DNA from: Phycisphaerae bacterium | GTDB lineage: Bacteria > Planctomycetota > Phycisphaerae > Phycisphaerales > UBA1924 | Direction: 5' to 3' | Length of the DNA: 64,000 nucleotides | Assembly: GCA_016873295.1 (NCBI GenBank) | Contig: VGXM01000006.1 | Span: 44,525 to 108,524 of the forward strand | Shown: in pieces, positions 25,834 to 30,493 of the stretch | Layout: each line of letters begins with the position of its first letter | Position numbering within the stretch: the stretch's first letter is position 1 | Notes under the pieces: generated by a model | Seen by the model: only the letters and a program-made list of their open reading frames with translations | Database searches by the model: none | What the model was told of the DNA's origin: nothing | Position numbers and translations under genes: made by a program

Positions 25834-26201
25834 GTGCGAGTCGGAAGAACGTGCACCAGGGCGCCGGCGGGCGCCGCGGGTGCCACGGGCGATCCGCCCG
25901 GCGGATCGCCCGTGCCGGCCGTTCGGACGGGCCTCGAACAGCCGCACGGGTCATCGGGCGAAGCGCCCGATGACCCGTGGCACCCGGAGCGCCCCGTCCA
26001 CGGACTTCCAGCTCGCGTCACTCGTCGTGCGAGTCGGAAGAACGTGCACCAAGGCGCCGGCGGGCGCCGCGGGTGCCACGGGCGATCCGCCTTGCGGATC
26101 GCCCGTGCCGGAGTCCGGACGGGCGTTGAACAGCCGCACGGGTCATCGGGCGAAGCGCCCGATGACCCGTGGCACCCGGAGCGCTCCGTTCACGGACTTC
26201 C
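25834..26201 (+). repeat. two tandem copies (A1 25834-26009, A2 26027-26201) of a 176-bp hairpin-rich REP/MITE-like element
   Basis: The unit is gtgcgagtcggaagaacgtgcacc...cacgggcgatccgcc-cgg-cggatcgcccgtg (14-bp perfect stem)...cacgggtcatcgggcg-aag-cgcccgatgacccgtg (16-bp perfect stem)...cggacttcc. The termini form short inverted repeats (gagtcggaag / cggacttcc). The copies lie about 125 bp downstream of the plus-strand GT2 gene, in its orientation. Confidence 0.85.
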
Positions 26202-26230
26202 GGCGCACGCCACGAGCCCGCGGCCCCCGC

Positions 26231-27109
26231 TCAACGCCCGCGGGCAATCCCGTGCAGCGCGATCCCCGCGGCGACCACGACGTTGAGCGAATCGACGCCG
26301 GGCGTCATGGCGATCCGCGCGCGAAGGGCGCAGGCCGCCAGCGCACCCTCGCTCAGCCCCGGGCCCTCCGATCCCAGCACCAGCGCCCAGCGCCGTCCCG
26401 GCGCGATGTGGACCTCGCCCAGGTCCACCCCGCCCGCGGGGGACAGGGCCAGCGTGTCGAACCCGGCGTCGGCGAGCAGCGACAGCGACCCGGGCCAGGG
26501 GTCCAGCGTCGCGAACGGCACACGCAGCGCGTGCCCGATCGACACCCGCACCGCCTTGCGGTACAGCGGGTCGCAGCAGCCGGGGGAGAGAAGCACCGGG
26601 GTGCCGGGCGGCGCCAGCGCGGCGACGCATCGGAAGACGCCGCCGACGTTGTCGTGGTTGGTCAGATCTTCGAGAACGACCGCCCCGGGAGCGTCGCGGA
26701 GGAGCGTGTCGGCGGACGCCGGCGGCAGCCGCCAACCCAGCGCCAGCACCCCCCGGTGCACGTGGAACCCGACGATCGAGTCGAGCACCGCCTGCGGCGC
26801 GACGTACACGGGCGTGCCCGGCGGGAGCGAATCGAGCCCGCCACGCAGGGCGCCGACGCGGGCCTCGGCGACCAGCACAGAGTGCACCGGGAACCGCGAG
26901 CGGAGCAGTTCGAGGACGACCAGGGCCCCCTCGGCCACGAACAGGTCGGCGCGGTCGGGCGCGTGGGCCTGAGCCCTGAGGTCGCGGTCCTTGAGGTTGG
27001 CGAACCCGGCCAGGGCCGCGCGGTGGTCGGGGTCGTCCAGGGAGGCGACGCGGATGAGGCGCACGGGGGAGGGTACTCGGCCCCGGACCGAGGCACGATC
27101 CGGGAACAC
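26231..27109 (-). CDS. TrmH/SpoU-family RNA 2'-O-methyltransferase
   Basis: SPOUT motifs are present: LEDLTNHDNVGGVFRCVAALA, LVLGSEGPGLS and VDSLNVVVAAGIALH. The start may be the GTG at 27064 (VRLIRVASLDDP) rather than 27109. Confidence 0.85.
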   Translation of the reverse strand: MFPDRASVRGRVPSPVRLIRVASLDDPDHRAALAGFANLKDRDLRAQAHAPDRADLFVAEGALVVLELLRSRFPVHSVLVAEARVGALRGGLDSLPPGTPVYVAPQAVLDSIVGFHVHRGVLALGWRLPPASADTLLRDAPGAVVLEDLTNHDNVGGVFRCVAALAPPGTPVLLSPGCCDPLYRKAVRVSIGHALRVPFATLDPWPGSLSLLADAGFDTLALSPAGGVDLGEVHIAPGRRWALVLGSEGPGLSEGALAACALRARIAMTPGVDSLNVVVAAGIALHGIARGR

Positions 27110-27180
27110 ACGCGGTGGGGCGCGGCGACCCTACGCTCGCGCGTCGGGCTCGTCGGGAGGCACGCAAGCGGAGGTCGGGC

Positions 27181-28349: not shown

Positions 28350-28718
28350 GGAAGTCCGTGGACGGATGCGCTCCGGGTGCCACGGGTCATCGGGCGCTTC
28401 GCCCGATGACCCGTGCGGCTGTCCGAGGCCCGTCCGGACGCCGGCACGCGCGACCGCCGGGCGGATCGCCCGTGGCACCCGCGGCGTCCGCCGGCGCCTT
28501 GGTGCACGTTCTTCCGACTCGCGCCACGAGTGGTGTGTGTCGGAAGTCCGTGGACGGATGCGCTCCGGGTGCCACGGGTCATCGGGCGCTTCGCCCGATG
28601 ACCCGTGCCGCCGTTCGACGCCCGTCCGGACGCCGGCACGGGCGAGCCGCCGGGCGGCTCGCCCGTGGCACCCGCGGCGTCCGCCGGCGCCTTGGTGCAC
28701 GTTCTTCCGACTCGCGCC
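28350..28718 (-). repeat. two tandem copies (B1 28350-28527, B2 28542-28718) of the REP/MITE-like element, reverse-complemented on the plus strand, directly downstream of asnS
   Basis: This is the reverse complement of the 25834-26201 unit: ggaagtccgtggacgg...cacgggtcatcgggcgcttcgcccgatgacccgtg...cgggcggatcgcccgtggcacc...ggtgcacgttcttccgactcgcgcc. The last base of B2 is the first base of the asnS stop codon (cta at 28718-28720). Confidence 0.85.
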
Positions 28719-30223
28719 TAGAACTCCGCCTGCCCCGGCGCCCGCGGGAAGGGGATGACGTCGCGGACGTTCTGCATGCCCGTGATGAACATCATGGCCC
28801 GCTCGAAGCCCAGCCCGAACCCGGCGTGGGGGACGGTGCCGTAGCGGCGCAGGTCGCGGTACCACCAGTATTCCTGCAAGGGCAGCCCCATCTCGGCGAT
28901 GCGGACGTCGAGCACGTCGAGGCGCTCCTCGCGCTGCGAGCCGCCGATGATCTCCCCGATCTTGGGGACGAGCACGTCCATGGCGGCGACGGTCGGGCCC
29001 GGGGCCCCGTCGGTGCCGGGCGGGTTCTCGCGCATGTAGAAGGCCTTGATCTGCTTGGGGTAGTTGATGAGCACGACGGGCTGCTTGAAATGCTCCTCGG
29101 TCAGGTAGCGCTCGTGCTCGCTCTGGAGGTCCTTGCCCCACTCGACGGGGAACTCGAACCTGGCCTTGCCGGACGCCGCGGCGTCGCGGAGGATCTTGAC
29201 GCCTTCCGTGTAGGGCAGCCGCCGGAATGGCGAGTCGAGCACGTGCCGCAAGCGCTCCACCAGCCCCTTCTCGATCCGCTCGTCGAAGAACTTCATGTCG
29301 TCGGCCCGCTCGGTGAGCACAGCGTTGATCAGGTACTTGACGAACTCCTCGGCGAGCGTGGCGTTGGCGGCCAGGTCCGCGAAGGCGATCTCGGGCTCGA
29401 TCATCCAGAACTCGGCCAGGTGCCGCGACGTGTTGCTGTTCTCGGCGCGGAAGGTCGGGCCGAACGTGTACACGTTGGTGAGGGCGCAGCAGTACGTCTC
29501 CACGTTGAGCTGCCCCGACACCGTCAGGTGGGCCTCCTTGCCGAAGAAGTCCTGCGAGAAGTCGATCCGCTCGCCCTCCGCGGCCACGCCCGGCGAGGTG
29601 AAGGGGGCCGAGCCCGCGTTGATCAGGCCCGCGTCCGTGGGCCCCGTCATGTCGTCCTTCTTCCGCGGCAGGTTGAGCAGGTCCAGCGTGCTCACGCGGA
29701 ACATCTGCCCCGCCCCCTCGCAGTCGCTGGCGGTGATGATCGGCGTGTGCACGTAGAAGAAGCCGCGCTCGTGGAAGAACCGGTGCATCGCCATCGACAG
29801 CGCGTGCCGCACCCGCGCCACCGCCCCGAACGTGTTGGTCCGCACGCGCAGGTGGGCCACCTGGCGCAGGTACTCGAACGAGTGCGGCTTGGGCTGGATC
29901 GGGTAGTGGTCCGGGTCCTCCACCCACCCCACCACGCGCACCGCGGAGGCCAGGATCTCGTTCCCCCCCTTGGGCGTCCGCTGGATCACGCCGTCGATCT
30001 CCACGGCGCAGTGCGTCGTCAAGCGCGCGACCTGGTCGGCGTAGTTGGGGAGCGTGGCCTGCGCCACCGCCTGGATGGGCTCGAAGCACGACCCGTCGTG
30101 CAGGGCGATGAACGACAGGCCCCCGCCGGCCTTGGAGTCGCGGCGCGTGCGGACCCACCCCTTGACCGTCACCTCGGCCCCGACCGGCGCCCCGAGCGCC
30201 TCGACCACTCGCGTCCACCCCAT
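28718..30223 (-). CDS. asnS: asparagine--tRNA ligase
   Basis: [31 protein letters not shown]...[21 protein letters not shown]...GGSQREER...[14 protein letters not shown] is a class IIb AsnRS. A GGAGG RBS precedes the ATG at complement 30221-30223. The longer ORF 28149..30443 and the N-terminus of 28718..30352 read through repeats and are rejected. Confidence 0.95.
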
Positions 30224-30272
30224 CGCGCACCTCCTGGGAGGGTCGATGGTAAGGGGCCTGGCGGTGTGTGTC

Positions 30273-30493
30273 GGAAGTCCGTGGACGGATGCGCCCCGGG
30301 TGCCACGGGTCATCGGGCGCTTCGCCCGTGACCCGTGCGTCCCGGGTGCCACGGGTCATCGGGCGCTTCGCCCGTGACCCGTGCGGGTCGGGTGTCGGGA
30401 TCAGGGCGGCACGGGCGACCGCCGGGCGGATCGCCCGTGGCACCCGCAGCGCCCGCCGGCGCCCTTGCGCACGCTCTTCCGACTCACGCCACT
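30273..30493 (-). repeat. one copy (C) of the REP/MITE-like element with an internally duplicated hairpin arm, between the asnS start and the DUF1559 gene stop
   Basis: ggaagtccgtggacggatgcgccccgggtgccacgggtcatcgggcgcttcgcccgtgacccgtgcg is followed by a second copy of the cccgggtgccacgggtcatcgggcgcttcgcccgtgacccgtgcg arm, then ...cgggcggatcgcccgtggcacc...cttccgactcacgccac. It ends at the stop codon of the 30492..31403 gene (cta at 30492-30494). Confidence 0.8.

Follow-up and report, generated by a model that had tools for sequence, protein, structure and literature searches.

What are the strongly folded repeats that lie around asnS in an uncultured Phycisphaerae bacterium, and why do some of them end exactly at a stop codon? 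The question is raised by a 64-kb stretch of contig VGXM01000006.1 (assembly GCA_016873295.1; 72.8% G+C), which is the whole stretch of DNA analysed here and is called the window in the following. A preliminary description of the window had pointed to five elements with terminal inverted repeats (TIRs) and two hairpins each, lying downstream of genes in the orientation of the transcript. According to our analysis the repeats are probably non-autonomous mobile DNA of the type known as repetitive extragenic palindromes (REPs) and REP doublets forming hairpins (REPINs), associated with a REP-associated tyrosine transposase (RAYT) of the HUH/Y1 kind. Their position at the 3′ ends of genes is explained more simply by the placement of CTAG-like borders than by a function in the transcript.

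Architecture of the repeat unit

Unit boundaries were taken between the TIRs. The window holds five units at three loci, which are 90–96% alike:

25832-26020, plus strand, unit A1: both TIRs degenerate (the left one TAGTGCGAGTCGGAAG)
26025-26212, plus strand, unit A2: hairpin 1 at 26077-26107, hairpin 2 at 26137-26171
28339-28526, minus strand, unit B1: perfect 17-bp terminal arms, outer border CTAC
28531-28717, minus strand, unit B2: left end flush with the asnS stop
30262-30491, minus strand, unit C: hairpin 2 duplicated (46 nt; heads at 30299 and 30345), variant central spacer

Profile search and TIR mapping thus agree with the copy number given before, at slightly wider boundaries. The unit is 188–190 bp long instead of the 176 bp first reported, and its period in tandem is 192–193 bp. 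A profile built from the five units and searched against the window returned those five only (E-values 1e-22 to 1e-62), together with weaker matches on the opposite strand of every unit, which arise because the unit is nearly palindromic.

The core of the unit consists of two REP-like hairpins in inverted orientation with the conserved heads GGTGCCAC...GTGGCACC. The unpaired heads read 5′-GGTGC|CACGGG...stem and, in mirror image, ...CCCGTG|GCACC-3′, and hairpin 1 has its head and stem base in common with the reverse complement of hairpin 2. The stems measure 14–16 bp. Across 42 copies and three species the heads GGTGC|CACGGG and CCCGTG|GCACC show no variation. Both hairpins were found as described earlier: the perfect 16-bp stem with its 3-nt loop (CACGGGTCATCGGGCG-AAG-CGCCCGATGACCCGTG) is present in A1, A2, B1 and B2, and the first hairpin has a perfect stem of 14–15 bp in A2 and B2 and an imperfect one in A1 and B1. 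Around the hairpin doublet lie arms of about 45 nt, which end in a 17–22-bp inverted repeat, TGGCGCGAGTCGGAAG. Such repeats had been noted as short TIRs; they are indeed inverted repeats, of greater length than described (TGGCGCGAGTCGGAAG(AA/TC)CGTG), and make a 17-bp perfect closing stem in B1. The armed unit as a whole is one long quasi-palindrome.

In unit C an internal duplication of one hairpin arm had been reported. The duplication is there and comprises the whole second hairpin, and the same architecture occurs at two further loci (L061, L084). Unit C therefore represents a subfamily and not a one-off rearrangement.

One unit folds at -140 kcal/mol (z = -9.4 versus shuffles). Together with the position of units directly after stop codons, this very stable fold speaks for structures selected at gene 3′ ends, as mRNA stabilisers, terminators, small RNAs derived from the 3′ untranslated region or nucleoid/gyrase sites, with mobility being secondary. 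E. coli REPs are known to protect upstream mRNA. Liang, Rudd and Deutscher reportedly found in 2015 that expression is reduced by REPs lying no more than about 15 nt from a stop codon, by way of stalled ribosomes and trans-translation. We nevertheless consider such a selected function very improbable in the present case. The opposite strand folds with equal stability, and T-tract intrinsic terminators (0 sites in 25500-30800), a sigma-70-like promoter (promoter scan of the element region) and Rfam matches were not found. In the comparison with Rfam, which the preliminary description had proposed, no covariance model matched the units; the only hit in the window was a tRNA-Ser, and the best score in the element region was that of Actino-pnp, with 21 bits against a gathering score of 47.7. 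Covariation is likewise absent. The 42 distinct full-length copies have a mean identity of 91%, for which reason the covariation test of the hairpins is uninformative on structure; three alleles of hairpin 1 occur, including the compensated pair GATCC/GGATC versus GAGCC/GGCTC, and mismatched mixtures are also present. Two further lines of evidence, the orientation of the units and the spacers of related genomes, are given below.

Dispersal of the family in the genome

The family was scanned for with an exact 18-mer from hairpin 2 as seed, followed by a unit profile search of the matched contigs. The 18-mer matched at least 17 other contigs of metagenome sample Ga0194127 (~0.97 Mb) as well as sister samples, and the profile search gave at least 60 units at no fewer than about 30 sites, with 54 distinct outer ends. 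Many units stand in head-to-tail arrays of 2–5 with a single orientation per array (5/5, 5/5, 5/5, 4/4, 3/3 and so on); truncated and chimeric units are also present. Furthermore, the bare doublet without arms occurs on its own with a period of 109 nt (L054, L096, L115). In the window the head 8-mer occurs 12 times, each time between genes.

All five units of the window fall inside 4.7 kb, as would suit a segmental or tandem duplication limited to this region. This explanation is refuted by the further sites, at least about 30 on at least 17 other contigs, which have unrelated flanks. [quoted passage not shown]

Among species-representative genomes the 18-mer was found as 34 singletons in unrelated taxa, none of which holds the element by profile search. 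The source genome or its close relatives are thus not among the motif-bearing GTDB representatives. An identical AsnS protein is encoded on contigs of the JGI metagenomes 3300020220, -221 and -603. Two of the AsnS-bearing metagenome contigs break inside unit C and one also ends inside A2; such breaks within units are frequent in the metagenome assemblies.

A RAYT gene flanked by the same hairpin doublet

All six frames of the organism's sequences were scanned for the HUH...Y motif. The sole protein of this kind is encoded by the RAYT gene L096:2-532 on the minus strand, completed as P0121 (182 aa, annotated as transposase), and one RAYT locus was seen in ~0.42 Mb. P0121 matches the NCBIfam model REP_Tyr_transpos (NF047646) with 79.7 bits and an E-value of 2e-22 over model positions 3-146 of 146. 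It passes the cut-off of Pfam Y1_Tnp, matches PDB 4ER8 (E. coli TnpA_REP) and shows the motifs HVH and YIHANP.

In L115 one hairpin-1/hairpin-2 doublet is located 40 nt upstream of the RAYT gene, and two tandem doublets begin 3 nt past its TAG stop. These doublets and the window units are nearly identical in hairpin 2; in hairpin 1 they have the head and the first 9 stem base pairs in common. Because the same doublet stands on both sides of the RAYT gene, it is the cognate sequence of this enzyme. Contig Ga0194127_10000606 begins with the doublets downstream of the gene and has an array of five units 22 kb further on; the end of the RAYT contig falls within another armed unit. RAYT locus and armed units are therefore parts of one genome. 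A RAYT had been named earlier as a gene to look for, and it was found with the hairpin doublet of the element on either side.

RAYT homologues with 56–61% identity (P0123 and P0213, 88–89 bits) are encoded in metagenome-assembled genomes (MAGs) of two other Phycisphaerae (L117, L119). They too have doublets on both sides, with identical heads GGTGCCAC...GTGGCACC and different self-complementary stems.

A third homologue (56% identity) was observed in L118 (GCA_023382955.1, 2840-3700). Here a different repeat borders the gene on either side, in which GGTGCCGTGG / CCACGGCACC stand where the head would be; this suggests that head and enzyme co-diverge within the Phycisphaerales.

Borders at stop codons and the scarcity of CTAG

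For the analysis of borders, outer ends were oriented so that the terminal repeat reads TGGCGCGAG, and the preceding 4-mer was tallied. Among the 54 distinct ends CTAG was found 17 times, CTGG and CTCG 6 times each, CTAA 4 times and CCAG 3 times, the rest being single cases; three further ends have CTAG shifted by two bases (listed as TTCT). Within arrays, every junction examined has a single CTCG between units, the B1/B2 junction reading ...CACACACCA-CTCG-TGGCGCGAG..., and the internal right arm is mostly the variant GACACACACCA in place of GACTCGCGCCA.

The genes next to the five units and their stop codons are as follows:

24629-25708, plus strand: GT2 glycosyltransferase gene
26231-27064, minus strand: SpoU-type methyltransferase gene
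27181-28059, plus strand: UppP/BacA gene
28718-30223, minus strand: asnS
28718-28720, minus strand: TAG stop of asnS, part of the CTAG bordering B2
30492-31403, minus strand: DUF1559/N_methyl gene
30492-30494, minus strand: TAG stop of the DUF1559/N_methyl gene, flush with the left end of C

As had been stated, unit B2 reaches exactly to the asnS stop codon and unit C to that of the DUF1559/N_methyl gene; C is placed between the stop of the latter and the asnS start at 30223. The SpoU-type methyltransferase gene has its TGA stop 18 nt away from the right end of A2. Across the family, 23 of the 54 ends abut the stop codon of an inward-reading gene, 19 of them exactly flush and 4 with the stop 2–8 nt inside a variant terminus. 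The preference for gene 3′ ends, often flush with the stop, thus stood up to the larger sample. The claim that every copy lies in transcript orientation did not. A1-A2 and B1-B2 each sit between convergent genes, so that a transcript orientation cannot be defined for A or B, and the stop-abutting ends of the family are left ends in 13 cases and right ends in 10, without orientation preference. This random orientation is what the preliminary description itself had named as evidence against its view, here against the orientation claim, and it also argues against selected transcript structures.

An alternative account of the position at stops is offered by base composition. The genome has 73% GC and is roughly 90% coding. 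In 357 kb of the organism's loci CTAG was observed 54 times versus 888 expected, a 16-fold depletion, and only 3 of these sites lie in coding sequence and 28 at stop codons. CTAG occurs 9 times in the window and YTAR 15 times, and 9 of these 15 YTAR sites serve as the stop of a called gene. Since CTAG survives mostly at TAG stops or between genes, units with CTAG-like borders come to lie flush with stops in either orientation. According to a manual tally, 12 sites have a convergent context, 11 a co-directional and 1–2 a divergent one; this fits an element that goes where the stops are, because one stop per 3′ end predicts 2:2:0.

The triplets past the far end of left-flush elements are TAG in four cases or one-step derivatives of it (CAG, TAC, TCG) and never TGA, for which reason both borders appear to be derived from (C)TAG. 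We also considered that an element-supplied TAG had displaced a native TGA to the far end; this was rejected, as the far-end triplets are never TGA.

In the window 50 genes were called. TAG serves as stop in 21 of 49 window genes and in 87 of 282 genes (31%) in all loci of the organism, compared to 6 of 46 in syntenic relatives (L109, L112, L120, L121). Such a share is unusual for a genome this rich in GC, the samples being small and the gene callers different. At all three sites compared, the relatives use TGA where the organism of the window has an element-flush TAG.

A more specific and quite doubtful possibility is that the armed 190-bp REPIN is stop-codon-seeking, with its C|TAG border integrating at or replacing a stop while the protein is left unchanged, and that it has shaped the termination signals of the genome. 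If this were true, dozens of genes would end directly in a structure of -140 kcal/mol that modulates translation termination or mRNA decay.

The borders also bear on the question whether the units might be classical MITEs. They would then be deletion derivatives of an IS5- or IS630/Tc1-like insertion sequence (IS), moved in trans by a DDE transposase acting on the 17–22-bp TIRs, with a target duplication of YTAR/CTAG (or TA); the REP doublet would be cargo, or the MITE would have arisen around one. The preferred target is YTAR for IS5, with 4 bp duplicated, and CTAG for IS630, with TA duplicated. The long and well-conserved TIRs and the small non-coding units of 188–190 bp fit this explanation, as do the outer 4-mers, mostly CTAG, CTAA and TTAG in keeping with YTAR, the one direct non-palindromic border pair CTAC/CTAC, and the TAG-like far-end triplets, which look as if they stemmed from one CTAG target. 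Nevertheless we regard it as rather unlikely. No IS with these TIRs was found in the ~420 kb of an incomplete genome, all TIR-like ends listed being ends of short units. The strictly head-to-tail arrays with the common junction variant ACACACCA-CTCG would be unexpected from independent DDE insertions, and many border pairs are mismatched (CTAG/CCAG, CTCG/TTAG). Moreover, the core of the unit is the cognate repeat of a RAYT.

Comparison with syntenic relatives

Two relatives (L109, L112; 81% AsnS identity) have the same gene order Band_7 - DUF1559 - asnS - bacA and allow a comparison of occupied and empty sites. The DUF1559-asnS spacer measures 268 nt in the window versus 36 nt in the relatives, the asnS-bacA spacer 659 nt versus 11 or 66 nt. 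The DUF1559 protein ends with ...WMNNPR* at the same residue in the window and the relatives, and the C-terminus of AsnS (...A(E/D)F*) likewise matches that of the element-free relatives. A third site concerns an M16 peptidase gene, whose stop is flush with the right end of an element in L108; in L121 a 13-nt spacer separates convergent genes at this site, and the C-terminus of the peptidase has the same length as in 4 of 5 homologues. In all three cases the stop is at its native position, the proteins being neither truncated nor extended. No copy of the unit was found in 43 kb of syntenic relatives. Given the short empty spacers and the identical C-termini of the relatives, the units are insertions exactly at native stop positions. 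The orthologous sites of the relatives work with 11-66-nt spacers and no element, which again speaks against a selected structure.

Unit C parts the conserved asnS leader (TTACCATCG...GGAG...ATG) from the end of the upstream gene (30224-30261 compared to L109 9965-10000 and L112 9966-10000). If the asnS promoter overlaps the 3′ end of the upstream gene, it has been shifted by 230 nt by unit C; the promoter scan gave nothing recognisable.

A unique non-coding stretch of 279 nt (28060-28338) lies between the uppP stop and B1. It is not repeated elsewhere, is without counterpart in the relatives (spacer 11 or 66 nt) and carries a 44-aa open reading frame in the JGI annotation. A degenerate unit copy was ruled out for this spacer, as its sequence is unique.

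Proposed mobility and points against it

On these grounds a REPIN-like mobility driven by the RAYT can be outlined. By analogy with E. coli TnpA_REP and the IS200/IS605 family, the RAYT would recognise the folded hairpins in single-stranded DNA and cut at C|T. The units would integrate at, or be bounded by, 4-mers that begin with CT and are mostly CTAG, and arrays may grow by head-to-tail reiteration, as proposed for BIMEs. The arms could be an accretion that travels with the doublet. The rarity of CTAG outside stops and intergenic regions would then leave units flush with stops, chiefly between genes that are convergent or co-directional. Effects on the 3′ ends of mRNA, if any, such as exonuclease protection or interference with the termination of translation or transcription, would be a by-product.

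Several points weigh against this mobility or limit the sample on which it is based. The head is GGTGC and not the canonical GT[AG]G, and no GTAG/CGTC stands beside the stems; the GT[AG]G head marks the GTAG superfamily, not REPs generally. P0121 remains 0.3 bit under the NCBIfam cut-off of 80. The doublets flanking the RAYT gene are without the outer arms of most dispersed copies, and the RAYT may not be the mover of the 190-bp unit. CTAG-like 4-mers on both sides (CTAG/CTAG three times; CTAC/CTAC once, in L066) resemble the target-site duplication of a DDE transposase; such flanking pairs are equally compatible with an element-borne border. Recent mobility is unsupported, as no empty alleles, and hence no occupied-versus-empty polymorphism, were found among the samples. 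In addition, the ascertainment of copies by the exact hairpin-2 18-mer inflates the apparent conservation of hairpin 2, the inspected sequence of the organism amounts to ~0.42 Mb (the window and 357 kb of loci), and the gene calls in the loci stem from our codon-bias caller, which agreed with the database calls on L001.

Related hairpins and other repeats in the window

Further REP-like hairpins were found in the window:

25733-25815, no strand assigned: two hairpins of a second REP family, stems CACGAC(T/G)GT...ACAGTCGTG, GTGGCAC head, directly upstream of A1
55170-55210, plus strand: solitary REP-like hairpin, CACGGGCCA...TGGCCCGTG-GCACCC, head GTGGCACCC, different stem

The second REP family has two alternating types with stems CACGACTGT...ACAGTCGTG and the same GTGCCAC/GTGGCAC head as the 190-bp units. 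It forms BIME-like alternating arrays (L071 5364-6406, L087 9533-10079) with up to 17 hairpins per kb. At several loci it is joined to 190-bp units that are truncated and takes the place of their left arm. Apart from the units, the window has the head 8-mer only in the solitary hairpin, which lies in a divergent intergenic region.

Two pairs of long direct repeats were observed in the region of the large upstream genes (15026-15325 / 16150-16449, 76% identity; 16831-17056 / 19796-20021, 92% identity). Both are probably paralogous gene segments.

Relation to known systems and implications

The family is a lineage-specific case of the known REP/REPIN-RAYT kind and is notable mainly for its flush TAG stops. 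Like the REPINs of P. fluorescens and the REP-BIME/TnpA_REP system of E. coli (PDB 4ER8), it comprises extragenic imperfect palindromes with a conserved unpaired head, inverted REP doublets, many dispersed copies and tandem reiteration. The same doublets stand on both sides of the one RAYT locus seen, and the head is kept between species, with varying stems (PMC3116915, PMC3333891, PMC5581495). For E. coli it has been described that TnpA_REP cleaves at C|T and requires the REP head, and rolling-circle or strand-exchange models have been put forward for tandem BIME growth (PMC3333891). Apart from the different head, the Phycisphaerae system departs from these REPINs in that most copies are 190 bp long, with 45-nt arms and a 17–22-bp TIR, in that its arrays repeat the doublet plus arms head-to-tail, and in its CTAG-like borders.

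Di Nocera et al. (2013) reported REP dimers and clusters, REP families in Planctomycetes, GTAG-REP termini that often supply TAG stops to flanking open reading frames, and tyrosine transposases with long TIRs as well as moderately abundant TIR repeat families (PMC3733652). These GTAG-REPs and TIRtrons resemble our family in the TAG stops from termini, the occurrence of REPs in Planctomycetes and the dimers and clusters. In contrast to them, the TAG-containing 4-mer of the Phycisphaerae units is mostly CTAG and lies outside the long arms, not beside the hairpin, the flanks of the transposase gene are hairpin doublets and not TIR arms, and the stop keeps its native position in the three cases compared.

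MITEs such as the Correia/NEMIS elements of Neisseria, ERIC and RUP are similarly 100–200 bp long, have TIRs, fold strongly, are gene-adjacent and co-transcribed, and use A/T-containing targets; they differ from the present units, which have no cognate DDE IS in the ~420 kb, a RAYT-cognate core and uniformly oriented arrays. The IS200/IS605 family (IS608, ISDra2) has a related HUH/Y1 enzyme that recognises subterminal hairpins in single-stranded DNA and inserts beside a specific 4-5-nt target without duplication. Such a mode could give CTAG at either side, provided that the right end has a copy of its own. Unlike these IS, the Phycisphaerae elements are non-coding and near-palindromic, and both of their ends are found equally at stops, which would be unexpected for a one-sided target.

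REP/REPIN-RAYT systems have been characterised almost wholly in Proteobacteria. Here a complete one, comprising the repeats and their cognate transposase, is found in Phycisphaerae, conserved in at least three MAGs, with an unusual anatomy of non-GTAG head and long armed unit. In this lineage the units break metagenome assemblies and lengthen intergenic regions (from 36 to 268 nt and from 11 to 659 nt). A pattern that looks functional receives a compositional explanation: borders resembling CTAG are nearly confined to stops, and this leads to flush repeats regardless of strand. If the link between stop and border is causal, the family would be useful as a natural case in which to study the tolerance of structured DNA or RNA directly past a stop codon.

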